64,000 nucleotides of DNA from Eledone cirrhosa (taxonomy: Eukaryota). Under the pieces are notes generated by a model. That model was not told the origin of the DNA. It searched no databases and saw nothing but the letters and a program-made list of their open reading frames with translations. Numbering within the stretch: position 1 is the stretch's first letter; every line of letters starts with the position of its first letter. Location of the stretch: assembly GCA_964016885.1 (NCBI GenBank), contig OZ024740.1:238886001-238950000 (forward strand), in the 5' to 3' direction. Position numbers and translations under genes: made by a program. Positions 22,005 to 62,945 of this stretch are shown piece after piece.

Positions 22005-22231
22005 TTAATTGTGTTTTGTCAGGTGAGGAAGAACACATGGTATGTTGCCAACTCTTTTCTCTACTTTAGCAAATGGAGCTATACAGGTAGCATGTTTGTG
22101 TGAAAATATTTCTGGCGGATAACTTGGAAAGTCAATACGATATATTGTGTTATATGTATCAACATCAGTATTCTTCTCTTTTTGCCATTTCTTACTTAAT
22201 GAATCGAGTAGGCCAAATTGTGTTGGGGTTC
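22005..22231 (-). CDS. CFAP107: CFAP107 exon 3 (not in the ORF track)
   Basis: Acceptor ttttctactttcag. GTPTQFGLLDSLSKKWQ...TIYRIDFPSYP...HN* continues the PPTNYGL motif. The three exons total 735 nt, or 244 aa. Confidence 0.88.
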
Positions 22232-23645
22232 CTGAAAGTAGAAAATTTCAACTCTTTTGTTACATATTTTTAATGAAAAACACTACCCATGATTTTCAAT
22301 TAATTTTTGAAATAATCAAAAATTTCTCATTATTGAGCTGGTGTTTAGAGTATAGCTTAAATGTTCTTACATAAAGTTATAGTGGAGGTTTTTAGATAAA
22401 TATAAACACTTTTGTATCAGAATTAAGGGAGCAGCTTCAAAGATTTTGGTATAAAAGGGGTTAATTTGAAGCATTAGAGTTGTTTTATAGTTTCGTTAGA
22501 TCTGGGGTACAAATTGGGAATGTAGAATATCAAAATTCTAATTTAGAAATTCATAGATATATGATTTATTTACTTTATATTGCAATACGTGAACAACTGC
22601 ATTGCTGATTACTGACTTTCAATGATCCAATCCCCACTTTATTGTATCTTTCAAGGAGATGTTACTAGCTTTCCTCACATATTTACATTTTTTGCCAATA
22701 TACACTGGCAAAAAATATACACATATACAATAGACTAGCAAACTGAGGCCATAGCAGAAGATTGTTGTCAAAGTTCTGTGGGATTGAATCTTGAACCAAG
22801 TGATTGCAAAGTGAACTTCTTAATGCCACAACCACCACACTTTGTTTTACCATCCTATCCCTCTATTTCCTCCATTACATTCATATTCATACTGCCTCCT
22901 CTTTCACCCTCTTGATCATCACAGCCTCGGTCACATTTGCTTAGTAATAGTGTAGAGAGGCTTCTATAGTCATATCAAGAACATGACAACCTCTCTAGTG
23001 CAACATTAAAATGTACTAATATACACTGAAAAGTAAAAAACCATGCCAAAAATGGAACATATGAGTGAGACATGGTCCTCTGATCCATCTAGGTCAGAGG
23101 ACCATGTCTCCAAATAAAATCTGCCAGACCAAACCATTATAAAATGCAGTAATCTTAAGACTTTTCTTTCAATTCACTAATCTTGCATGATATGTTTACA
23201 TTGGTTTTGTTTCCGCTAACAAATATTTTCCTTAATAAAGGCTTGAATATCATATTTTGTTTGCGTTTTCTTTTTTTCACTAAGTATGAAGGCTCACTAT
23301 TTGAAGTAGTACTAAATGGAAAGTATATACTTTTCGATTGGGCATTAAGTTGCATAAGTAAAATGGCAACATTAAGAATTGAAACCTTGTCACAGTCTGT
23401 ACACTGAACTGTTGCTATGTAACAAAATCTTGTTTGTTGTTATGCATTTCTTGTGTGTGCCACATTTTCAAACATATGTTGTTCCATTTCATTCAGGGTT
23501 GATCTTTGTTTTATCTCAGTTACAGTATTTAAATCTAGCTTTTGACACTTGACACTGCTGGATTGAGTGGTCCTGTCTAAAGGTGTTGAAATCAGGAAGA
23601 TATCCATAGCCAACTAATGAAAAGAGATTTATGTTATTAGTGTTT

Positions 23646-25090
23646 TCAGAAAACTAGGATAGGAGTAGATGAATGGCATGTGAAAGCTGTACAAGCCAGG
23701 TATAGGGGAACAGTCAGCAAAGTTAGGATTAGCAATGACTATAGCGAGAAATTTAGCGTACAGGTTGGTGTCCACCAGGGCTCTGTTCTTAGCCCTCTCC
23801 TGTTCATCATAGTTCTGCAGGCAATAACGGAGGAGTTTAAGACCAGATGCCTATGGGACCTCACACTTATAGCTGAATCTATGGTAGAACTAGAGAAGAA
23901 ATTCCAAACTTGGAAGCAGGGACTAGAAAGAAAGGGTCACAAAGTCAACCTGACAAAGACTAAGGTCCTTGTAAGTAGACGAGAAAACAGAACCCAGTTC
24001 CCCTCAGGGAAATGGCCTTGCTCAGTATGTAGGAAAGGTGTAGGTAGGAACTCCATTCTCTGCCCCAAATGCAAACAATGGGTACACAAGAGATGTAGCG
24101 GGATCTCAGGAAGCTTAACTAAGAATGTAGGCTTCACATGTCGCAGCTGTGCTGGGACAGCAAGCAGCAAACAGCCACAGGAAACAAGTACCACCAAACT
24201 CTGGGAGGGCTCTGTAGAAACACTAGACAGCTTCTGCTACCTAGATGACCAAATTAGCAGCGGAGGTGGGTGTTCGGAAAGTACAAAAACTAGGGTAAGA
24301 ATGGGATGGAAGAAGTTCAGGGAGCTACTGCCACTGCTAGCTGCAAAAGGCTTTTCCCTCAAAATGAAAGGCAGACTGTATGATGCGTGTATCCGAACAG
24401 CAATGTTACATGTTAGTGAGACCTGGGCGCTGTCTGTGGAAGACTTGTGTAGATTAGAAAGAAACGAAGCCTGCATGCTCCGATGGATGTGTAATAGTAA
24501 CATACGCGAACGGCAAAGCATAAACGAATTGAGAGAGAAACTGAGAATAAGAGGAATCAAATGCTGTGTGCAGGAGAGGCGGTTGCATTGGTATGGACAT
24601 GTGATGCGTATGAAGGATGACAGCTGCTTAAAAAGGTGCAGAGCACTAGAAGTCGATGGAAACCGCGGAGTGGGGAGACCCAAGAAGACCTGGGACGAGG
24701 TGATAAAAGCAGACCTTGCCCAATTGCACATAGGACCGTGACCTCTGGTGTCACACAGCAATACAGAAGACCTGACCCCCCCATGGGTACAAGCCGAAGC
24801 TGAAGCATATATAGCATATAGACAATATGCCCCCACACCCTCCCACTGCAAAAAAGCACCCAGCCCACACTGTAAAGGGAACGTGTAGGCACCACGGAAA
24901 AAAAGCACCCAGCACTCACTGTAAATGAGGTTGGTGTTAGGAAGGGCATCCAGCTGTAGAAATCAAGCCAGAATCAGTTCCCGTATGAGCAAGGCATGGT
25001 CAGCCGACCGGACACTGCCCACAACAGGACAACCCGTCTAGCCCATGCTAGCGTGGAAGAACGGACGTAAAACGGTGATGATGATGATGA
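23646..25090 (+). mobile_element. RTE LINE 3' half in CFAP107 intron 2
   Basis: ORF 23680..24741 has GVHQGSVLSPLLF with the YADD segment deleted, a Cys-rich insertion, and LHWYGHVMRM. (GAT)n tail. Confidence 0.95.
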
Positions 25091-25189
25091 TTCGTTTTTC
25101 TTTATCATCATCCCTACACATTTTTCCAGTCATTGTTCAATTTCTTTAATGTATCATCATCATCATCATCATTATTTTATGTCTTCTTA

Positions 25190-25378
25190 AGGTGGTTGAT
25201 TGGCAGTATCGGTAGAGGGTCGGACGCCATGCTTTCCAGCATAGTTATGTCCCTTTACGATCTGAGTTCAAATCCCGCCGAGGTTGACTTTGCCTTTCAT
25301 CCTTACGGGGTCGATAAAATAAAGTACCAGTAATGCACTGGGTAATTGCTGGCCTTGTGCCTAAAGTAGAAACAATTA
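25190..25378 (+). mobile_element. tRNA-derived SINE with TSD
   Basis: Same family. TSD attattttatgtcttctt. Confidence 0.9.
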
Positions 25379-26380
25379 TTTTATGTCTTCTTTCCATGTT
25401 GGCATGGGTTGAACAGGTTATCATAATCTGAGACTAGACAGGTTAGGAGGACTATGCTTTGTTCATACATTTCATTTTTTGGCATGATTTCTGCAACTGG
25501 AATCCCTTCCTAACGCAAAACGTTTCACAGGGTTTACTGGTTGCTTTTTATTGTAGTACTAGCACCACCAGAGTGGACTGGATCTATTTTATTGTTACAC
25601 CTGCACAACCACTTTACAGAGTATAATGGATGCATTTTATCATAGCATCAGCAATACCATTTCACAAAGTGCACTAGGTGCATTTTATGGCACCAGCACT
25701 TCTACTTTAAAGACTACTGCATACATTTTATTGTGGCATCAACACTACCACTTTACAGTATATAATGGATGCATTTTATCATGGCACTACTACTATCACT
25801 TTAGATTATACTGAGTGCATTTTATTATGGCATCATACATATAGTAATGACTTAATTAAAAAGAAAGAGCAACATCCATGCCCCTTTTCAGGGTCTCAGT
25901 GACTGGTGGGAAGAAATTGTCAGACAGAGAGCTGACCCAAATACTTGCATCAGAGTGGACCCTGCCTAAAGACACCCAATGGTTAGGTGTGAAACCAAAC
26001 AATGGAATAACTCTATTATTCAAGGAGAGAAACAGGAATGATCCGTCTAGCAAAATTCCACATACAAGGCTTTGATCAACTTAAGACCATAATACAAGAA
26101 GTTTACCAAAGGTGCATACATATACACACATATCACAGACCAGTCAGTACTTAAATGAAGCCACTGACCTTCAGGTGGTTTGAGAGCATACATCCTGTTT
26201 ACATACATTCTTGTACTCTATCAATTGGTCCAATGGGTTAGAGATTTGACATATGAACCTATACTCTACTGAGTGCATTTTACCTTGGCACCGTGCAGGC
26301 GAGGCATGGTCTCCCGACCATTCCCACATCAAATGGAACAAAACCGCCTAACCCATGCTAGCATGGAAGATGGACGTTAA

Positions 26381-26420
<40 letters not shown>

Positions 26421-28007
26421 CCAATACTAGGGAAGTTGTCATGTCTTTGACATATCTGAAGAGTCCTCCTGACACATTGTTTGGAAAATTTTCTGTAGAT
26501 GGATACCCTTCCTATCATCAACCACTTTACAAAGTGTAGTGAGTGTGTTTATCATGCCGATCACCAGCCTTAGGGAGGTTGTTGTGTCTTTGACATTGAT
26601 GTGTGTAAATAAGCACTAATCCCCAATGAGTGATGCTTAGCTCTGGTTTCATAGTATAAAACAGATGAGAGATAAATCTGTCTACTCTAGCCTGTATAGA
26701 ACACCAGTCATTCACGGATAGCACCTGGTGGCAATTTGCTATGAAATTCTCAACAGGTAGGGAAACAGAAACAATGTAAAATACAGTATTCTGTTGAGAA
26801 ATTCAATGAAATGTCTGTAGCAGAATTAGAACTAACAAGCTATGAGCAGGTAGTGCAATAATCTATCCACTCAATCAAATATATGTTTATGTGTACACAC
26901 ATCATCATTGTGCCAATGTACAAATTCTCTTCTCCACAAGTTTTACAAACTACTTTTCCATCCCTCAGATGAGCGTAATGTTCCATGACATCTAAATATT
27001 TATAGATGAATAGAATTGTGAAGGAAAATATAGTTGAGTGTCCTTCCTAATGTTAACCTAATCATTCTACTAGAATCAGGCAAACATTTATGGTCAGGAC
27101 TGTTTAGGGCTCAGCTTTCATTGGAGTAGAGTTTGAAAAAAGCCAGCATGTTAGACTCACATCAAATTTATTTCAATTAGGTCTCTCATCGTTTAACGTT
27201 CACTTTCCATAGCAAAGAATAGACGGGTTGTCCCATTTGAGGCAAGTTGGGTCAGGTGACCGTGTTTTGCTCATATAGAACTGTTTCTGTTAAGATTTCT
27301 ACAGCTGGATGCCCTTCTTAATGCCAACCACATTTACAGAGTGTGCTGGTTGCTTTTTGTTGTGACTCCTACACAACCACCTTACTGTGTGGGCTGGGTG
27401 CTTTTTGTTATGACTCCTACACAACCACCTTTCAGTGTGAGCTGGCTGCTTTTTGTTGTGACACCTACACGACTATTAAGGGATAATGTATGCATAGAAA
27501 TGTCACACTAAGTGATTAAAACCAATGATGGATGGGGTAGCTATTGAGGAAATATATCTAACATATGCTAGCATAACTGTTAATTTCAAGATGATGGTGA
27601 AAATACAAACTGAGATACAATACTTTGGAGATCTTTAAAAATGTTACCAGAGCTAAGGAGAAAGTCTCTACATGGCCACTCGACCAACAGCCAAACCTTT
27701 CCCAAACCACATTCTAGTCTTAAAAATGATATATAGTCGGGAATGTACTATTATTGAAAAGACAAAAAAAATAAGACAGTGTGGTCGTGACTTAAATAGG
27801 TTTGCTTGAACTGTGATGACTGGGTCTAAACAATAACAACGGTAATGATGTCAAAGACTACAACAAATAATTTTACTCTTACAGAGAACTATGCAACTAC
27901 GTTTTCTAATAACCAACCATCTCTATAATACAGTCTTTAAAATAAAAAGGGTATAAAGGGATTGATTATACATGGTTGCTGAAGCAGAAAAAAAAATTAA
28001 ATTTTAC

Positions 28008-28284
28008 CTAAACAAGGATGGTCACTCTTTTCTGGAATCCAGGCATCGTGTATTAAATTCCAGTTCCGCAATGTTGGTAAGTTTTTCTCTCTCCAACGTT
28101 GGTTGTAATCCTCATCATATGTCGAAATCTGATTATTATTATATATCTCCATGTATTTGGATATAAGACTGGGAACACCTGAGCAGCATTTCAATTTATT
28201 CACAATAGCTTTACTTTTGTCTGCTAAATATGTACTTGACATGGGTCTTAGGTTTTCTGCCTTATTAAATTGGTCTCTATTCCA
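28008..28284 (-). CDS. CFAP107: CFAP107 exon 2
   Basis: Acceptor ttccctttcag. ISTYDEDYNQRWREKNLPTLRNWNLIHDAWIPEKSDHP resembles ISTYDDHYN...LPPLRTWN...WLPEKSDFP. Donor GTAAAA, phase 1. Confidence 0.92.
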
Positions 28285-28373
28285 CTGAAAGGGAAATGTA
28301 TTTACTCTATAAATATACTGCACAAAGTTTACACACACATGTACATTGTTGTTAGTATTATTTCAAACCATTA

Positions 28374-28818
28374 AGGTGGTAGAGCATTGAATAAAATGCT
28401 TTGCAGCATTTAGTGACAGCTTTTTATGTTCTAGTTTCAAATCTTTCCGAAGTGGATTTTGTTTTTTATCCTCCTGGGGTAAATAAAATAAAGTACTAGT
28501 AAAGTAGTAGGGTTGATATAATCGACTTTCTCCTTTCCACAAATCACTGGCCTTGTGTCTAAATTAGAAATCATTATTTCAAACCAAAAATGGCGGTTGA
28601 TTGGCAGTATCGGTAGCGCATTGGACACCATGCTTTGCAGCATAGAGTTTCAGCCCTTTACGTTCTGTGTTCAAATCCCGCAGAGGTTAGTTTTGCCTTT
28701 CATCCTTACAGGGTCGATAAAATAAAGTACCAATAATGCACTGGGGGTCGATTTAAACGACTTTCCCCTTCCCCAAATTGCTGGCCTTGTACCTAAATTA
28801 GAAATCATTATTTCAAAC
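28374..28818 (+). mobile_element. Two tandem tRNA-SINEs (older + younger)
   Basis: Units at ~28374-28575 and ~28592-28810. attatttcaaac is repeated at all three junctions. Confidence 0.85.
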
Positions 28819-30243
28819 GATTAGTTTCAATGATAAAAGTCTAAATAGCAAACACAAGTTCTCAAGTAGATACTGTTAATATACATATCTACTGAGATAG
28901 TTAACTCTATCAAAACTGAACATTATAACTAATATTTAGTTTAGCTTTATTTAACAGCTTTAACCTTTTTGATGGCAACCCATCTGAGACTACGTCTGCT
29001 TTTATGGTAAAAAAAGAGAAATTCATTAGTTTTAAAAATAAGAATTCTTCAAAAATTGATAATTTTACATAAGATCTTTAATATTATGTTATGTTCCAGA
29101 CAAACATTAATTAATATTGAGTTCTGCCACCGACACAATCTCACTCATTTTTGGAGAGGGTGTCATTGATTTACTTCACTCTAGTATTCAACTAGTATTT
29201 ACTTTATCAGCATCAGAAAGATGAAAGGTAATCTGATCTTGGCAGGATTTGAACTCAAAACTTAAAGTGATGTAACTAAATACCATAAGGATTGGCAGAA
29301 CCCATCACTATCTTATAGACAGTACCTTATTTGTTATATAAAGCAGATTGTACTAAAATAGCATTTTACTTAAACACTTCAAATTCTTGATTATTTTCAA
29401 AATTTATTTCAAACATTTAGGCACCATTAGAAAAAGGAAAAAGTTAAATTATTTGCTAAATTTTCTGTTTGACTTATTTAATATATTGTATACTGGAAGG
29501 AAAGAGTGTAAATGTTGTCAATGCATTGTTACTGGACAGCAGAAAATAAATGTTCACACTTCACAGTTGTCTAGTTCATATTAAAACTAGTATCTACTTG
29601 TGAAAATATTTCTCCAACATATCAAGTCCAATCAAGAAGATATGTATGATACTGTGAAATGAAAAAAAAAAAAACCCAACGTTTTGGTCAAATCATCTGA
29701 TTTAAGCAAATGCTGACCACCACAGGAATTCAAGATATTATCCACATTGGTGATAAGAAGGGCATCAAACTATAGAAAACATGCCAAACAATGGGTCAGG
29801 AGGACTCTTTAGCTGTGTTAAAGACATAACAATCTTCCTAGTGGCGATGCCACGATGGTGCACCCTGTAGACTGTGGGAGCATTCGTAAGTGAAATGTGG
29901 GTCACCGGCTTGTCTGAAAGGTCAGTAGCTCTGATTAATTACTGACTTGGTCTGTGATAACCTGTTCAACCCTTGACAGTAGGGAAAATGGACGTTAAAT
30001 GATGACAGCAATAATGATGATTTACAAATCCCACCACATTTATCACACACCCATAACATACTTTCTCCCATCCTATCCACTCTCACATTGTCCTTTTAAA
30101 TCTCACCACATCGTTGGCAGTAATATATAGGCGAGAGGTTTAGGAGGAGGGATACATTGTATTGAGATAGGGTATTAAAACGTGACGTAGAAACAATTTA
30201 AGAAACAATAACTTATTCTATCGTGTATAAGTTCAAAGCTTAC

Positions 30244-30474
30244 CGACATTCTATTCTCGACCCAGTTTCCAGTCAATACTAAAGGAGAAAATACCTTCTC
30301 CAGCTTCCAGCTGGGACTATTAATATTTGTAGGTGTCGCATAGTTAAGGTCTACAGATTTTTTAAAGTACATGCCACTGGGCTGACAAATATTTATGTCC
30401 CTTAAACTTGTTGACATAGGTGGCAGGCGATCAACTTTGAAATTAAAAGGATAGTCTTTTTGCTTTAGATTCAT
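30244..30474 (-). CDS. CFAP107: CFAP107 (C1orf158-like) exon 1; exact start ATG uncertain
   Basis: SPSWKLEKVFSPLVLTGNWVENR resembles vertebrate TPSWQIETKYSTKVLTGNWMEER. Donor GTAAGC at 30243, phase 0. Confidence 0.85.
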
Positions 30475-40240: not shown

Positions 40241-40392
40241 CCCTCTTCCTGCTATTTCAAGCGTTAACCTAATATATTTCTTCCATATACTGTACCGATT
40301 GTGTTGTTATTTCTGTTTACCTTTTACACACATACACACACACATATGTATATATATATCTATATATATAATCTATATATATGTGTGTATAT

Positions 40393-43319
40393 ACAAAAAT
40401 TCTGCCTAAGAAAACTCATACAACACCTACACCGCACGCTACAACATCACATACGGACTATCTCCAGCCTTGTACCACAACTCGCTGAAACCCCAGAACC
40501 TCTGTCCAAGGTCATCTCCGCCACTATAGACAGGTCATACCACCACCGCCGAGACTACGAGAAAAAACGCCTAACACAAAAATTTCTCAAACTCAGGACG
40601 GCCAACTGTCTTAACAACATCCCAACGCCAAACACCAACAGAGGCGAACAATACGTTACCAACACCGAACCTAGCGGCACCCCGACCAACAACACACCTG
40701 ACGCAAAACACCTCGTCACAGACTTGACAGGATCCCTCTCCCGAGAGGAATTAGACCTCCTCAGCCTGGGTCCCAAGTTCATATTGAAACAGAGACTGGA
40801 CGACAGACTATGGCTCGACATAGAAACGAATTTCTGTCGAGCTGCCTACCAACTGAAATGGATATCGACTCTCGACAACAACACCACGGAATCCACCACA
40901 CCCAGATTCCCGATATACCAACTAGATCGCCCACTCTATCCACCGCCCGCCAACCGCGAGCTGGAAGATAAACTCTCGAGACTAAAACATTCCGTATTTA
41001 ACATCTTACGGAAACAGAAGAAGATGGCCCCTAACCTCTCCAGGACACAACAACTCGCCCTGAAGAACCTACGGAATAAGGAACTTATTTACTTACCATC
41101 CGACAAAGGTAAAGAGTTCTGCGTCATCTCTCAAGCCACATACAATAACCTAGCCTTCGAACACCTAAGCGACAGTGAACTGTACACAGTGATCCCGGAC
41201 ATGACCGCAGCCCAAATCGAAAAACAGACCAACTCCATTTGGTTCGATATCTGTAGGAGAAGACAACTCCCGAATAAAATTAAACTCAACTACACCACTA
41301 GAAATAGCAGACTGCCCACTTTCTACCACCTCATCAAGACCCACAAGAATAGCACTAAGACGCATATAAGACCCATCGTCTCTAGCATAGAAGGACCCCT
41401 ATACAAAATTTCCTGGCTTCTCTCCCAGGTCCTCAAGCCTCTACTCTCCACCTTCCCCGGACATGTCAGTAGCTCCGACGAAGTTATACGTAGATTACAC
41501 CAACTCCAGCCAGAATAACTTAAACTTAATAAATACGCTTTTAGCCTCGACGTTGTCTCCCTCTACACTACAGTCCCCGCTCACCCAGCTGTCGATTTAT
41601 TGACGGACTGCGTGGTCGCAGAGAACATCCACTGCTACGGCCTCCACCCGACGGACATACACCAACTTTTGTCCTTCACGGTAGACAACACGTACTTCAC
41701 CTTCCACCACCACACATACAGACAGACAACAGGATTACCCATGGGATCCAGCCTCTCTGGCCTGCTGGCCATCACTTACATGAACCAGCTAGAATGCCGA
41801 GCCCTCAACACCTGCCATTCCCATGCCTTCTTCACCCGATATGTAGATGACATACTCATCCTTACATCATCCCGTGAAGAGGCAGAGAAAATATACACAA
41901 CATTCTCCAGCATGGACGCCAGTATAAAGTTCAGCATTGAACACCCCGATGACCGCGGATCCCTATCCCTGCTGGACTTCCAACTCAGGGTAACAGAGGA
42001 AGGCAACATCCACACCTGCTTCTATAAAAAATCCGCCAGCAGGGACCTGTTCGTACATTTCAGATCGGCCCTCCCACTCGGTGCCAAGTTCGGATACATA
42101 AAGAACGAACTGGCACGTATCAAGAACAAATGCACCGACGCCAGAGACCGAGACACACACACCACACATTTCCTGGAAGTACTCAAACTGAACGGATACA
42201 CGACATCCACCACAAACCGTGCCAGAAAGAACAGAGGACACCACACCCGAGGCACTAACACTTGCTTCCTGAAGCTCCCACACTTCAGTGAAGAAACAAC
42301 AACAGCCATCCGCAGAGCCATCAGACGAGAAGGTCTGGATATTCAACTGGCCCATTCGGGTCCTTCTTTGCGTGGACGGCTAGCTAAGAGACACTCCACC
42401 AGACATGACAACTGCTGCAGACTAGCCAACTGCCCCATCAACGACACAGACCTATGCCACCAGGCTTACGTAGTTTACAGACTAGAGTGTGACAAATGCA
42501 ACAACTTCTACGTAGGTAGCACCACCAGACCACTCCACATAAGAATAAAAGAACACCTCAATACTAACGCTTCCTCATTTAAGAAACACCTAGTTAAATG
42601 CAAAAACACTGATAAAAACATAACAGTTAGGATAGAAACTAAAGAAAGAAACCTCGGTAATCTTAGAATCAAGGAAGCACTCATTATAGATAGAACACAT
42701 CCACCAATCAATAATAGACTAGAGCTCAACACCCAATTTATAACCTGATAGGGCCTCTAGCCCCACTTTACACACCCCACACACACGCACGCACACCCCC
42801 CCACTTATTCTCTCTCACACATACACACACAAAACCAGTTCTAACACCAGATAACACCTACCCCCCACTTTTACGATTAGACCTATCTTCCCACACTCAC
42901 ACACACACACACACCTACACCTTCATGCTTTCTCCCACACACATATACAGGCACGCATATAAAATTTACATAACACAACAAAAACATAAACAAACCCCTC
43001 TTAAAGGGAGACTACTCTTTACCCACCTAATTTTAATTCTTTGATATTAAAGTTAGAACTCTATACTATTTCCGGTCAGCATAGCTTCATTGGAAATTTA
43101 GACGCTGGTCTGAGACTTTTACTTCCCTCCGAAGAAGAGATATTATCTCGAAAATTAAGGACATTTAAATAAATTCAAGGTGAAAGACTAATTCTCACCA
43201 ATATCTCTCACTATTGCATTCTTTTTCTATGTCCATATCTGCATTGTCTTGGCCTTATTACACATATTCTAACGTTTATACCTCATTACACAATGCTTCA
43301 AGTGAACTATAACCTCCTC

Positions 43320-53649: not shown

Positions 53650-53713
53650 CTCTCTCTCTCTCCCTATATATAGTTTTGCGAGGTTTTTTATAGGAAATCG
53701 AGTGTCGAAACAA

Positions 53714-54138
53714 ATATTGTTATACTTGGGAGGGTCATATTTGTGTAATATTGCCAGAATTAATAACAGAACACACTCAATGTTTGGTTGGTTTTCGCCT
53801 TTCGCTTCTGTGTCTTTTAAAATAAATAAATAAATATATAGACAGACTAAATAAAAATGGCGTAGACATACAATGTAACGGGAGAAAACAATAGCACCAC
53901 TGACGATGTTGCAGATGTGCAACGAAAGAACTTTGATAAACTATATATATGTGTTTGTGTCTATATTGTATCTGTATTATTTTTGACCGTCGGTCAGTCA
54001 ATGGCAACATTGAGGACCGAATAAATTAGATTACCGATATAAAAGACACAGAAGCGAAAAGCGAAAACCAACCAAACAGTGAGTGTGTTCTGTTATTAAT
54101 GTTGGCAATATTACACAAATATGACCATCACCAAGTAT

Positions 54139-54146
<8 letters not shown>
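53714..54146. repeat. Inverted repeat (~106-bp arms) enclosing a hammerhead-like motif
   Basis: 53714-53819 is the reverse complement of 54040-54146. 53890-54140 is repeated directly at ~58640-58872. Confidence 0.9.
53897..53936 (+). ncRNA. Hammerhead-like motif, weak stem I
   Basis: CTGACGA-t-GTTGCA gatg TGCAAC-GAAAG-aa-CTT. Homologue at 58645-58684. Confidence 0.6.
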
Positions 54147-54215
<69 letters not shown>

Positions 54216-54418
54216 TATGTACACGTACATACATATATGTATACCGACGTACAGTAGTATGTATATATATATATACATACATGCACACATATATATATGC
54301 ACGTATGGATTCACCGAACATTTATTATAATGCTCGGTGTGTTTGTAAACAAACATCCCGTATTAAGCCGTAGTGTCTAGCAACCACCGTTGCTCGTTTG
54401 TTCAACACTGACAAAGGA

Positions 54419-54461
54419 ACGCTGTACTAGTTTCAAGCTTGTTAGCTATCGTCAGCAACGT
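54419..54461 (-). ncRNA. Type I hammerhead ribozyme (inverted array copy)
   Basis: Reverse complement of 55008-55050. Confidence 0.88.
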
Positions 54462-55007
54462 ATACCTTCCTGCCAGATTGTTGAACGTATATACTTACCT
54501 TATGCATATTGACGGCCGAGCAGCCCAATATGCACATCGAGTGGGTTAATCGGCCGGGTGCACCGAAAACGATAAACGGAAAAAATGAAACGATATTTCA
54601 TTTCCCACTCTTAGTACGGCTGTTACTTAAATATAAGTATGTACACGTACATACATATATGTATACCGACGTACAGTAGTATGTATATATATATATACAT
54701 ACATGCACACATATATATATGCACGTATGGATTCACCGAACATTTATTATAATGCTCGGTGTGTTTGTAAACAAACATCCCGTATTAAGCCGTAGTGTCT
54801 AGCAATACATATATGTATGTACGTGTACATACTTATATTTAAGTAACAGCCGTACTAAGAGTGGGAAATGAAATATCGTTTCATTTTTTCCGTTTATCGT
54901 TTTCGGTGCACCCGGCCGATTAACCCACTCGATGTGCATATTGGGCTGCTCGGCCGTCAATATGCATAAGGTAAGTATATACGTTCAACAATCTGGCAGG
55001 AAGGTAT

Positions 55008-55050
55008 ACGTTGCTGACGATAGCTAACAAGCTTGAAACTAGTACAGCGT
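55008..55050 (+). ncRNA. Type I hammerhead ribozyme (array copy)
   Basis: ACGTTG-CTGACGA-tAGCT aaca AGCTt-GAAA-CTAG-TA^-CAGCGT. Intact core, stem I pairs, palindromic stem III (ACTAGT), GUA cleavage triplet. Confidence 0.88.
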
Positions 55051-55429
55051 TCCTTTGTCAGTGTTGAACAAACGAGCAACGGTGGTTGCTAGACACTACG
55101 GCTTAATACGGGATGTTTGTTTACAAACACACCGAGCATTATAATAAATGTTCGGTGAATCCATACGTGCATATATATATGTGTGCATGTATGTATATAT
55201 ATATATACATACTACTGTACGTCGGTATACATATATGTATGTACGTGTACATACTTATATTTAAGTAACAGCCGTACTAAGAGTGGGAAATGAAATATCG
55301 TTTCATTTTTTCCGTTTATCGTTTTCGGTGCACCCGGCCGATTAACCCACTCGATGTGCATATTGGGCTGCTCGGCCGTCAATATGCATAAGGTAAGTAT
55401 ATACGTTCAACAATCTGGCAGGAAGGTAT

Positions 55430-55472
55430 ACGTTGCTGACGATAGCTAACAAGCTTGAAACTAGTACAGCGT
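55430..55472 (+). ncRNA. Type I hammerhead ribozyme (array copy, +422)
   Basis: Identical to 55008-55050. Confidence 0.88.
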
Positions 55473-55758
55473 TCCTTTGTCAGTGTTGAACAAACGAGCA
55501 ACGGTGGTTGCTAGACACTACGGCTTAATACGGGATGTTTGTTTACAAACACACCGAGCATTATAATAAATGTTCGGTGAATCCATACGTGCATATATAT
55601 ATGTGTGCATGTATGTATATATATATATACATACTACTGTACGTCGGTATACATATATGTATGTACGTGTACATACTTATATTTAAGTAACAGCCGTACT
55701 AAGAGTGGGAAATGAAATATCGTTTCATTTTTTCCGTTTATATATATATATATATATA

Positions 55759-55938
55759 TATATAGCTTTCACCGTATTTTTAACTAAAGGAATTTTAGCT
55801 TGATAACGGGGTTTAGAACCCTCAGATAAATGGAAAAAGATGAACGTCAATACTCATCTTTTCCCATTTATCTGAGGGTTCTAAACCCCGTTATCAAGCT
55901 AAAATTCCTTTAGTTAAAAATACGGTGAAAGCTATATA
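55759..55938. repeat. Near-perfect palindrome (~85-bp arms, 10-nt loop)
   Basis: gctttcaccgt...gaaaaagatga-acgtcaatac-tcatcttttcc...acggtgaaagc. Confidence 0.95.
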
Positions 55939-55983
55939 TTTTCTAATTTCAAACTCGCTCACTGTTTCAAAACATACTTGCCA

Positions 55984-56819: not shown

Positions 56820-57025
56820 ATGTTAGCTGTTATGGTAAGTGTTGTACCAGAGCTGTGGATGAAACTGTTATGGTAGTTTACTAGTAGCTGTTGTCAATGA
56901 TGGTGCTGTTCATGCTTTACCAGAGCTGTATAGCTGTTATGGTAAGTGTTATACCAGAACTGTTATGGTAAATGTTATACCAGAGCTGTATAGCTGGAGC
57001 TGTTATGGTAAATGTTGTAGCAGAG
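56820..57025. repeat. Degenerate minisatellite (agctgttatggtaagtgttataccagagctgt)
   Basis: About 5 imperfect units, immediately 3' of the minus-strand PLE. Confidence 0.8.
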
Positions 57026-57099
57026 CTGGCAAGAAGATGATGGGTAGGCGAGAAATTGTCGGCCTCCCAGATGAATTGCCGGAAGTGCTAGGCAGCCAT

Positions 57100-58600
57100 G
57101 AAAAAATATGACTAGTTGCTTTGAAAAGAAAAAAACAAGTTGAATCTGTAGAATTAAGTCAGTATTGTTTGTTTGGGTATGGTTGTTGTTGTTATTCCAT
57201 TCGCTTTTTCTGTTTAACTTTGGTTTTCTAAGCTCTATCTCGCTTGCTTCTCTGATTTGCCTACCTGTTGGGTCATTTCTATGTTTAGATATTATTTTAA
57301 TTTCTATGTTGTCTATATTACCGTCATGTCTTTGTCTGGCGTGTTCGTTTTGTACTGAACCGTTTTTTTTTTGTACTTTTAATTCCACCCAGTGCTGGTC
57401 TATTCTTTCTCCTATGCTTCGAGCTGTTTCACCTATGTATGTCGTTGCCATGTTTCTGCAAGTACCGTCTGTACATCTTATGCTATAGACTACATTTCTA
57501 GTTTTACAGTTTATCTGGAGGTTCACTTTACATATAACGCATTTCTTATTAGTACAGTGGGTTTTCTTAAAGGGGTATGTTTTGCTGATCAGGGATTTTA
57601 TGGTAGTTCCTGGCTTTTCTACCACTTTAATCTTTAAGTGGGTCTTTCTTAGGGCCTTTCTACATTGGTTAGCTAATTTCCCCCAGTGGTAGCATCCACG
57701 AACATGACACTCTGGTATCTCTGGTTGTCGTACTATGAGGTGGCTTTCCCTATCATATGTTTAGTACTATCTAAGTTATTCCATGATTTGCTTCTGTATA
57801 ATGGGCAAATTCCTTTCATGTCCATTTCTATGAGGGTCTTATACTTCTCAGTGGCTCGTTTGTATACTGTGATTCTATATCTTTGGTTGTAGCCAGAGAA
57901 CTGCATGCGGTTGATGAAGTGTTGGATGTATCTTTCCCTTTCAGTGGGGTCGCACATGCGGGACACGTTCTTCATCACTCGTACCAAGTCTGCGATCAGA
58001 ATATTAAACTTAGCACTACTGGACAATGCTGAGTTTTTGAGTATCAAGTATTTGGAGGCCATAGTTTTAGCATAGTGTGAGTGGAGAATTTGGGCCCTCT
58101 CGTCTATAGTGTTAATCCAGAGTTCCGTGTCTAATACAGGTAGTCTATTGTTAGGATGTTTGGAAGGGTAGTCAACAGTTACAGTTATACACTGGTGTAT
58201 GGAGTTAGCTATCTACTGGATGCTTTCCATTGTGCTATATTCTAAATCATGTTCATTAGTACTCTCGTCTACGTAACGAGAGTACATGACGAGGTCTATG
58301 GAGCTCTCTTCAAGGAGATATTTTAGTCTCCTTTCCCACCATACCATAAACAGATTGGCAACATCACCAGCTATGCTGACGCCAATGGCTGCTCCCTCAT
58401 TCTGGGTGTAGATATTTTCATTGAATTTAAACATATAGCCGTTTTTTCTCATCTGATCATTGTTATGGGGTGTCCGTATGGTTTTGGTTCATCCATTCCA
58501 CTTTTCCATGGGAGTCTTTTTAGCTATTGAGGTTATGGTAGGGGGTTCCTTATGGGTCTACTGGGGCAGAAACAGCTAAGGTCATGGTTATCTAGGTAAC
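57100..58600 (-). mobile_element. Degraded Penelope-like element (second family; Neptune/Naiad-like Cys linker)
   Basis: ORF pieces GAAIG...RYVD, LPVLD, and CTNKKCVIC...NVVYSIRC...YIGETAR...REA (GIY-YIG). Several stops and deletions. Confidence 0.9.
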
Positions 58601-58644
58601 CATACCAACATTACAATACAATAGGAGGGAACATGATAATAGTA

Positions 58645-58684
58645 CCACTGATGATGTTGTAGATGTGCAACGAAAGAACTTTGT
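58645..58684 (+). ncRNA. Hammerhead-like motif (homologue of 53897)
   Basis: CTGATGA-t-GTTGTA gatg TGCAAC-GAAAG-aa-CTT. Confidence 0.55.
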
Positions 58685-59059
58685 TAGACTATATATATAT
58701 ATTTATATCTGTATTTTTAACCGTTGGTCGGTCAATGATAAACAATGATTGCCAAATAAATTAACTATGGAGATATAAAAGATACAGAAGCGAAAATCAA
58801 CCAAACAGTGAGTGTGTTCTGTTATTATTTTTGGCAATATTATTACAACAATATGACCCTCCCCAAGTATAACTACCCCCCCCCCCCCTTTTTATCCCAA
58901 TAACTTATTTTAGTTATTGTTCGCCCTAGGCTGAGATATCTCGTCTCTAACGCGAAGAAATACCTATGATTCCTAGCAGACAACTGACGATGGATATTCC
59001 TCTCTTTCGCCCGTAACTTTTATTTTTCATTATACTTAAATGCAACCACACAGCTCACC

Positions 59060-59915: not shown

Positions 59916-60083
59916 GAAAATTTCAAAGCAGCAAAGAAAATTTCAAAGATACGAAAGATTTCCTGGTGGAAGTTCAGGTGTACTCCGGGTTGGTATCCAG
60001 TTTCGAGGTGAAAATCCAATCATAAAATCCAACGAATCTTGAGAGATCCGCGTAAGCGTAGATATATATATTTTCTCATTCTT

Positions 60084-60119
60084 TCTTCTGATGAAGGACT
60101 AGCGTCCGAAACGTTAAGA
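60084..60119 (+). ncRNA. Minimal hammerhead motif (same family as 40205)
   Basis: TCTT-CTGATGA-a-GGAC tagc GTCC-GAAAC-GTT-AAGA. Confidence 0.75.
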
Positions 60120-60203
60120 CCCTCTTCCTGCTATATCAAGCGTTAACCTAATATATCCCTTCCATATACTGTACCGATTGTGTTGTTTTTTCTATTTACC
60201 CTT

Positions 60204-60282
<79 letters not shown>

Positions 60283-60340
60283 GTGAGGTTTTTTTTACAA
60301 ATTGAAAAATAACCGAGGTGTCCTACACGAGTGAAAGTAT

Positions 60341-60585
60341 AAAGAAAAAGAGATGAAATCGAAAATGCAACTGGAGTCTTATTTAAAAAAAAAATATATA
60401 TATTTATTTGGTTTCTTTACCGGTTTCGCAGTTCTTCTGCTTTTCAAAAGTAACCACAGACCCTCCATCTCAACTCTACTTTTGAAAAGCAGAAGAACTG
60501 CGAAACCGGTAAAGGAACCAAATAAATATATATATTTAAAAAAAAAATAAGACTCCAGTTGCATTTTCGATTTCATCTCTTTTTC

Positions 60586-60588
<3 letters not shown>
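60341..60588. repeat. Near-perfect palindrome (~112-bp arms, 24-nt loop)
   Basis: Mirror ORFs 60353..60550 (+) and 60379..60576 (-). Loop at 60453-60476. Confidence 0.95.
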
Positions 60589-60645
<57 letters not shown>

Positions 60646-61049
60646 AAAGGCATATAAATAACAAAGCAAACGACACAGTACAATGAAGAAATATATTATT
60701 TTTACGCTTGATATAGTAGGAAAAGAGTCTTAACATTTCGGACGCTAGTGCTTCATCAAAAGAAAGAATGAGAAATTAAAGAAGAAATAATAAATAGAAA
60801 GATTGAGGAGACGGGCAGGGCGGAAACGGAAAAAATATTTTTAGATAAAAATAACAGGTCCATTCATGTTACCAATGCATGTTCATATTAAATGTAATTT
60901 AGTTTAGTGATAATCTTGTACTTGTTTATTCAATGCGGTGGTAAAGGTCGGGACCTTTCCTAAAACAATAAAACCTTATCTTACTATTCTAATAATGAAC
61001 AAGTCATTAATTTCCTTTCATCTTAAAATGAAATTAATTACTGGTTCAG

Positions 61050-62871: not shown

Positions 62872-62945
62872 GCCCCAATAGCTCAGAGGTTTAGAGCACT
62901 GGTCTCGTAAACCAGGGGTCGTGAGTTCGAATCTCACTTGGGGCA
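62872..62945 (+). tRNA. tRNA-Thr (anticodon CGT)
   Basis: Acceptor stem GCCCCAA/TTGGGGC, D arm GCTC/GAGC, anticodon arm CTGGT-ctCGTaa-ACCAG, T arm GTGAG-TTCGAAT-CTCAC. Oligo-T Pol III terminator at 62961-62975. Confidence 0.95.

Follow-up and report, generated by a model that had tools for sequence, protein, structure and literature searches.

The window, i.e. the whole 64-kb stretch of DNA that was analysed, displays a two-armed insertion of a 422-nt unit in a host (AT)n tract. An inverted arm and a direct arm meet 5′-to-5′ at position 54805, and three intact type I hammerhead ribozyme motifs are present in the insertion. Unit positions are numbered u1–u422 from one predicted cut to the next, u1 being position 55045. 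The features are as follows.

54143–54213, no strand: left (AT)n target microsatellite
54209–54805, minus strand: inverted arm, u42–u422 and u1–u216, with its outer end at the tail-less "B" site
54425–54455, minus strand: hammerhead core 1, predicted cut between 54425 and 54424
54805, no strand: 5′-to-5′ inversion junction, where u42 (minus) meets u183 (plus) with one base common to both
54805–55741, plus strand: direct arm, u183–u422, u1–u422 and u1–u275, with its outer end at the tailed "T" site
54934–54958, plus strand: four insertion-private variants (u312, u326, u330 and u336), present again at 55356–55380 (plus) and 54511–54535 (minus)
54983–55069, plus strand: hammerhead 2 and extended stem I, core at 55014–55044, predicted cut after 55044
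55045–55466, plus strand: sole complete cut-to-cut monomer, 422 nt, non-coding
55405–55491, plus strand: hammerhead 3 and extended stem I, core at 55436–55466, predicted cut after 55466
55674–55689, plus strand: small hairpin u208–223, with the B end within its loop
55683–55741, plus strand: terminal "tail" u217–275, about 59 nt, between both fixed ends, holding hairpin u243–265
55739–55764, no strand: right (AT)n target microsatellite

The tandem 422-bp units claimed in a preliminary description of this DNA are evident in the direct arm (54805–55741), where Tandem Repeats Finder gives a period of 422, 2.2 copies and 100% matches. That description placed the array at 54211–55740. The direct array is real, however 54209–54805 is an inverted arm with a third hammerhead, which had been missed. 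The inverted arm is approximately 600 nt long (54206/54209–54805) and is identical to the unit at 599 of 600 positions by self-comparison; its outer boundary is ambiguous within 54209–54213 due to AT microhomology. As had been stated, there is no open reading frame of note. The longest ATG frame in a trimer of the unit is 51 aa, and a frame scan of the trimer shows no RT plus GIY-YIG frame, which an autonomous Penelope-like element (PLE) would have. A Pol III B box is also absent from the 422-nt unit. Target-site duplications are unreadable because the target is (AT)n. No host exons were mapped near the insertion, and the sole host gene mapped in the window is about 24 kb away. The insertion is very young.

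A three-exon homologue of C1orf158 (Pfam PF22595) is found on the minus strand at 22011–30474. Per exon it is 59–66% identical to the Octopus sinensis protein, and of the two listed relatives O. sinensis is the closer (65% identity); on this basis the host is a probable octopod. A tRNA gene (Rfam, 73 bits) is at 62872–62945 on the plus strand. Several other elements are present in the window. A near-intact PLE at 40268–42748 (plus) displays the Pfam RVT_1 and GIY-YIG domains, interrupted by a single stop in frame. A hammerhead-like motif in its 3′ region reads CCGAAGA instead of CUGANGA, and the element ends in (AT)n at about 43322; a copy at locus L047 is 91–95% identical. A fragment of a second PLE family at 56975–58212 (minus) has an RT end and an endonuclease-like frame with no Pfam match, and its relatives are at L054, L068, L079 and L117. 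Another two-armed element (53700–54146 and 58638–58873) adjoins the insertion; it has a minimal hammerhead-like motif near 53900, and its ends resemble the 3′ end of the L079 PLE. Directly past the right AT run, at 55758–55939, is a palindromic two-armed insertion of a further family with related copies at L031, L050 and L058. Two-armed insertions are nested at 60069–60778, the outside one belonging to a minimal-hammerhead family and the inside one consisting of long and short 3′ ends of an L169-type GIY-YIG PLE.

A strict type I descriptor gives exactly three matches in the window (55014 plus, 55436 plus and 54455 minus), all within the insertion, and no matches in 50 dinucleotide shuffles of the window. 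The type I hammerheads of the preliminary description are thereby confirmed, as are the positions of its predicted cuts after 55044 and 55466, to which the minus-strand cut of core 1 is added. The motif has CUGANGA, GAAA and NUH together with helices I, II and III, and helix I is open. Helix I consists of six pairs and a long extension, helix II of four pairs above a U.U mismatch, and helix III of one pair and a palindrome. The hammerhead had been called intact. This is correct for the core, which is complete, however the U.U at the base of stem II and the minimal stem III had been left out of account. The extended stem I given earlier is the predicted fold, with −29.4 kcal/mol and a z-score of −2.83. 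The predicted fold of the 422-nt monomer has a z-score of −8.4, which is due in part to the AT palindromes.

The stem II base in the window is U.U and not G-C, i.e. the G10.1–C11.1 pair is lacking. This pair is "highly conserved" but not obligatory (PMC4209133), and the stem II base pair is non-standard in six of nine aligned variants. The axolotl hammerhead HHR_Amex2 also has U.U at the helix II base; its cleavage is weak when alone and improves in a dimer (PMC7229834). The helix sizes of the unit match those of the "canonical" metazoan type I hammerhead, a form thought to require a dimer (PMC4209133). The computed pairing probability of the stem III palindrome in a circular monomer is 0. As stem III has one pair and a palindrome that is unpaired in the circular monomer, cleavage would probably need a dimer. 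In the case of Xenopus retrozymes, eight of nine dimers gave no cleavage in vitro (Li et al. preprint, 10.64898/2026.07.22.740005).

In the alignment of nine variants, which were hand-picked where 90 distinct segments exist in the clade and one of which belongs to another family, 147 of 153 cells are paired. Compensatory change on both sides is found at 12 of 17 pairs and is equalled in 0 of 500 shuffles, a control that is lenient because the structure was drawn from the same nine sequences. Within the family, helix I shows a swap between U.G and G.U with 14 units of each. Covariation across the clade implies selection for the predicted hammerhead fold. Rfam shows no ribozyme match at gathering score, and none among 125 matches at E ≤ 10 over 1,561 nt. 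The Rfam comparison proposed at the outset does give a match to Hammerhead_HH9 when 106 nt are used (19.2 bits, E = 0.0087), however this is below the gathering score of 52. A sister family with a 466-nt unit reaches 38.6 bits (E = 5.8e-9). The Rfam models concerned have a longer helix III than these units. Rfam matches to microRNAs were dismissed, as they are the AT palindrome.

The outer ends of the arms are at u275 (T) or u216 (B), about 59 nt apart, and each passes into (AT)n. B is in the loop of the small hairpin, and T immediately follows a long hairpin on its 3′ side; the two ends of the sister family with the 466-nt unit are at equivalent structural places as judged by eye. Loci picked regardless of their ends gave 39 inversion junctions, of which 27 are B/T and none is T/T or B/B. 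The remaining 12 comprise nine with one non-standard end, one at an edge and two duplicates. Most of the nine appear to be interrupted, rearranged or gapped, judged by their flanks, and L146 may be a T/T exception. All 27 resolvable two-armed insertions have one arm per site, and the chance of this is 0.5^27 if arms choose sites freely at equal odds. In the set selected by tail, 25 of 35 are B/T, and the one B/B call (L086) is an AT expansion followed by the tail. Recurrence of the same two-armed build at 27 of 39 inversion junctions shows that the locus is not an assembly artefact, which had been raised as a possibility.

Endonuclease-bearing PLEs display partial tandems, insert into (TA)n, and have an inverted 5′-truncated copy and a tail at just one of the ends (Craig et al. 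2021, 10.1101/2021.04.23.441226). One such PLE has been shown to nick both strands and to initiate at two internal positions of the RNA, and the sequence that separates these constitutes the tail (Frangieh et al. 2024, PMC11167929). The insertions analysed here share the partial tandems, the single tailed end, the inverted 5′-truncated arm, the AT-rich or (TA)n target and two internal start sites. They differ from these PLEs in that the unit has no coding frame, the tail is about 59 nt compared with 30–40, and the hammerhead is canonical and not minimal. The insertions carry the PLE "tail" signature, and PLE dependence has direct anatomical support. The suggestion that PLE enzymes move the element is thus backed by the 27 of 27 B/T insertions. 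At 60277–60590 in the window, a palindrome of the same long/short build is made by 3′ ends of a coding PLE family.

The unit is not confined to this locus, a possibility that had been left standing. The 36-nt hammerhead core has 1,838 exact copies genome-wide (control 0), and the exact tail-end junction into AT has 3,308. A related-hammerhead pattern, which leaves out the window's own variant, has 20,170 genome matches (control 0), and arrays of approximately 466-nt period are among the 100 of these matches listed. Stretches sampled for analysis were 40 around the first 100 core matches, 60 around tail-end matches, 14 additional ones, 12 of which were taken for the youngest subfamily, and a further 20; contig C1 of the 3.0 Gb genome supplied almost all of them. 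The array at L141 is a single arm of about 20 near-identical units over 8.7 kb.

Many hammerhead types are found in this genome. The sister retrozyme family with the unit of about 466 nt has G-C at the helix II base and a GUU triplet (L057:6100–7400; C1 5738326–5752444), and one of its arms has 31 listed hammerheads. It is a better candidate for a cleavage assay than the family in the window. At L058:4200–7401 a further type I hammerhead family, with the palindrome ACGCGU, forms an array whose period is 310 nt; this is probably a third retrozyme. Several more hammerhead families with an AT-palindrome helix III and a long helix II are at L035, L037, L041, L053, L112, L113, L130 and L133. At L089, L118, L123 and L129 there are insertions of barely more than the tail, flanked by two AT runs.

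By sequence criteria the element is a non-LTR retrozyme: its tandem non-coding units fall within 150–450 bp, each has a hammerhead, at least two are consecutive, and they are dispersed. Metazoan non-LTR retrozymes are likewise non-coding tandem units of 150–450 bp with a GC content below 50%, one type I hammerhead per unit and thousands of copies, in genomes that contain PLEs (Cervera and de la Pena 2020, PMC7229834). Axolotl Amex1 has a one-pair palindromic helix III, as does the unit. Cleavage and circles have been demonstrated for those elements and are predicted for the unit described here. Plant LTR retrozymes have type III hammerheads in two LTRs, unlike this type I, tandem unit. It is likely that the insertion belongs to a young, non-autonomous non-LTR retrozyme family and that this family is moved by PLE proteins.

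The 5′ ends of the arms are scattered (199 ends). In loci selected by tail, the cut-site junction is read through in 84 of 85 cases, and one arm (L091) starts at the cut. One 5′ end at the cut site in 85 is about what the truncation rate predicts (approximately 1), thus there is no visible sign that linear cut RNA serves as a template. The read-through implies that templates are circles or uncut multimers.

The units in the window are identical to one another and depart from the youngest majority sequence in four places, in all three covering units and on both arms. The hairpin is kept despite all four changes. The four-variant haplotype has three matches genome-wide, all of which are in this insertion and on both its arms. 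Contig sets X6 and X7 hold the element with the majority alleles, and X1 and X2 touch only the AT-rich part. As a second case of shared private variants, L038 has two variants in every covering unit on both arms; one of these has 13 genome-wide matches, i.e. eight in L038 and five in single units of older background. The four private variants on both arms together with the read-through fit repeated copying of one template, and for the window insertion this template was probably circular.

Between arms of the same insertion, 472 of 508 diagnostic site comparisons agree, compared with 67% for foreign arms. Such concordance is also expected if same-age copies share a source subfamily. Fully concordant arms are found in only 19 of 32 two-armed insertions, and some of the discordances near an 8-nt insertion are probably alignment noise. 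Clear multi-site haplotype mosaics are present in six older insertions (L061, L062, L098, L099, L130 and L131), with a mid-unit switch in L062, and thus one template is not the rule. L031 has one variant on a single arm only, and the older long arrays L039 and L181 display interleaved unit variants of the local-amplification type. Taken together, these cases indicate that template switching, two templates or later conversion must occur. Rolling copying of one circle had earlier been suggested as a possible origin of the array; this fits the present insertion, however the six mosaics do not conform to it. The B/T rule is still obeyed in L061, L062, L099 and L131, which suggests that it is set by the two nicks. 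As the one-tail rule also holds where the haplotypes of the arms differ (L099 and L131), it would belong to the nicks and not to the RNA.

A-to-I editing was considered as the source of private variants and was rejected. Three of the four changes in the window are A>G, yet there is no genome-wide A>G excess. The youngest hairpin has 617 exact matches genome-wide, 617 when any A→G is allowed and 636 when any T→C is allowed, the A-to-R search being one without a positive control. Array-fixed private changes in the sample number eight, four of them A>G, which is too few for testing editing. Copies of the hairpin at u310–344 with U>C as their sole kind of difference number 19, and there are none with A>G alone.

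A possible cycle may be proposed. The tandem locus would be transcribed, and neighbouring hammerheads would pair through the palindromic stem III and cut, giving 422-nt monomers that a host ligase would close, as in the axolotl and mussel retrozymes. A PLE endonuclease would then nick both strands of an (AT)n target; the target is observed, and the nicking is modelled on the anole PLE. The two nicks would each prime reverse transcription at a different one of the observed end positions, u275 and u216. Each cDNA would round the template a variable distance, and joining of two 5′-truncated cDNAs back to back would produce the anatomy seen. Both arms of the insertion in the window would come from one template sequence, and some older insertions would have used, or switched between, different RNAs. 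On balance a circular template appears to be the main route. The full proposal, in which the insertions are a genomic record of rolling-circle, two-nick target-primed reverse transcription of one circular RNA from two fixed sites for up to about 20 rounds, is put forward tentatively.

The same element and PLE enzymes may instead have used an uncut linear multimer transcribed from a genomic array, with the hammerhead weak or acting later and with no circle. With the anole PLE in vitro, the hammerhead is dispensable and unprocessed RNA is used and is the dominant substrate (PMC11167929), which favours such a template. Long homogeneous arrays, e.g. L141, are possible sources, heterogeneous multimers fit the mosaic arms, and read-through of the cut site is predicted here as well. 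However, neither the window's haplotype nor that of L038 is found at any second locus; the source array would thus be missing from the assembly and would itself need a monomer-to-multimer step. The covariation across the clade, with the selection on the fold that it implies, also weighs against this route. In addition, the 74 inversion junctions include only four recurrent pairs of coordinates, of which two or more belong to the L034 duplications, so that junctions of a source locus are not commonly recopied. An uncut multimer is thus considered unlikely, although it is the strongest competitor of the circular template.

A less probable explanation is that a PLE inserts monomers or short copies, and that arrays and shared variants arise later in DNA by unequal crossing-over and arm conversion. 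This route was proposed by Li et al. (10.64898/2026.07.22.740005), and both the interleaved variants of L039 and L181 and the one-arm variant of L031 are consistent with it. However, both arms are multimeric even in the youngest insertions, where the B/T ends are intact and the units identical or nearly identical, and the identical units of the window share four variants across the inversion. It should be noted that this explanation and that of the uncut multimer share the PLE part of the model, and their odds therefore overlap with those of the favoured retrozyme reading.

In 115 stretches (100 of the family and 15 of sister families), almost all of them from contig C1, the unit is never contiguous with a PLE frame. 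At 30 GIY-YIG loci it is likewise absent from the 3′ region proper of the element, one of these loci having a separate retrozyme insertion beyond an AT run, and in these 30 loci the unit has no homology to a pLTR or 3′ end. Searches by tblastn, frame listing, tail profile and GIY-YIG loci gave no autonomous partner. Since no coding PLE is joined to it in 115 stretches, the element is best read as a non-LTR retrozyme. That the unit is a pseudo-LTR of a coding PLE outside the sample, and the insertions its 5′-truncated copies, is very improbable. In its favour, PLE insertions are mostly 5′-truncated with the same end pattern, and the roughly 115 stretches sampled in a genome of 3 Gb come almost entirely from the first contig. 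However, arms reach about 20 head-to-tail units with no coding sequence, the searches of the stretches and GIY-YIG loci were negative, and the hammerhead is canonical and not the minimal form of PLEs (PMC4209133). The retrozyme reading of the preliminary description has thus withstood the tests that were run, i.e. the element is dispersed, is not the terminal repeat of a coding PLE in any of the 115 stretches, and is not an artefact.

An L169-type PLE was considered as the partner, since alignment of the tail with its 3′ end surpassed 1,000 of 1,000 shuffles. This likeness is not specific and was dropped, because another family scored equally among 23 ends and the register was offset by one tail. 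The 5′ end of the retrozyme is joined, without AT, to an inverted foreign 3′ end at L051:3250–3475, L081:566–743 and L090:3425–3482, and the foreign families in L051 and L081 are coding PLEs. These cases, which may be chimeric insertions, were set aside as evidence, since a deletion between neighbours would account for them just as well and L051 is of the tail/tail type. Most Chlamys PLEs have no hammerhead, and non-autonomous ones such as MRC1 of Chlamydomonas have a 3′ end resembling that of their autonomous partner (10.1101/2021.04.23.441226). The present searches gave no partner of this kind.

PLE dependence of retrozymes has been argued from co-occurrence and pLTR kinship (PMC7229834; 10.64898/2026.07.22.740005). 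Li, Clavereau and Pollet (2026) come to the same conclusion on PLE dependence, with arrays formed from monomer to multimer; they rely on co-occurrence and on homology to pLTRs, chiefly in vertebrates, whereas the evidence here is end anatomy, and homology to a pLTR was not found. In the available text of that preprint the terms "tail" and "target site" are absent and "inverted" occurs only in a reference. The main text of PMC7229834 does not contain "cephalopod", "octopus", "inverted" or "microsatellite", and the accessible part of the review PMC7761336 makes no mention of inverted arms or tails. A search of the open literature, judged by title and the start of the abstract, gave no paper on a retrozyme family of cephalopods, although cephalopod sequences may be among those in the supplement of PMC7229834. 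The element is a young member of a class that is already known, with PLE-type end anatomy and in a host group for which no report was found. The surprise is therefore moderate.

For the re-entry of animal retrozymes into DNA, PLE enzymes and circular templates were earlier proposed from co-occurrence and sequence kinship. The insertions described here give evidence of a different kind, namely a pair of start sites that are exact to the nucleotide, a one-tail rule that is strictly kept, and private variants common to the arms on either side of an inversion. The anatomy gives exact predictions in vitro, i.e. starts at u216 and u275 and multimers from a circle. The family also extends retrozymes, at high copy number, to a probable octopod. 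If the rolling-circle reading is true, this clade of more than 20,000 hammerheads would be a natural test bed for the unproven life cycle of retrozymes.
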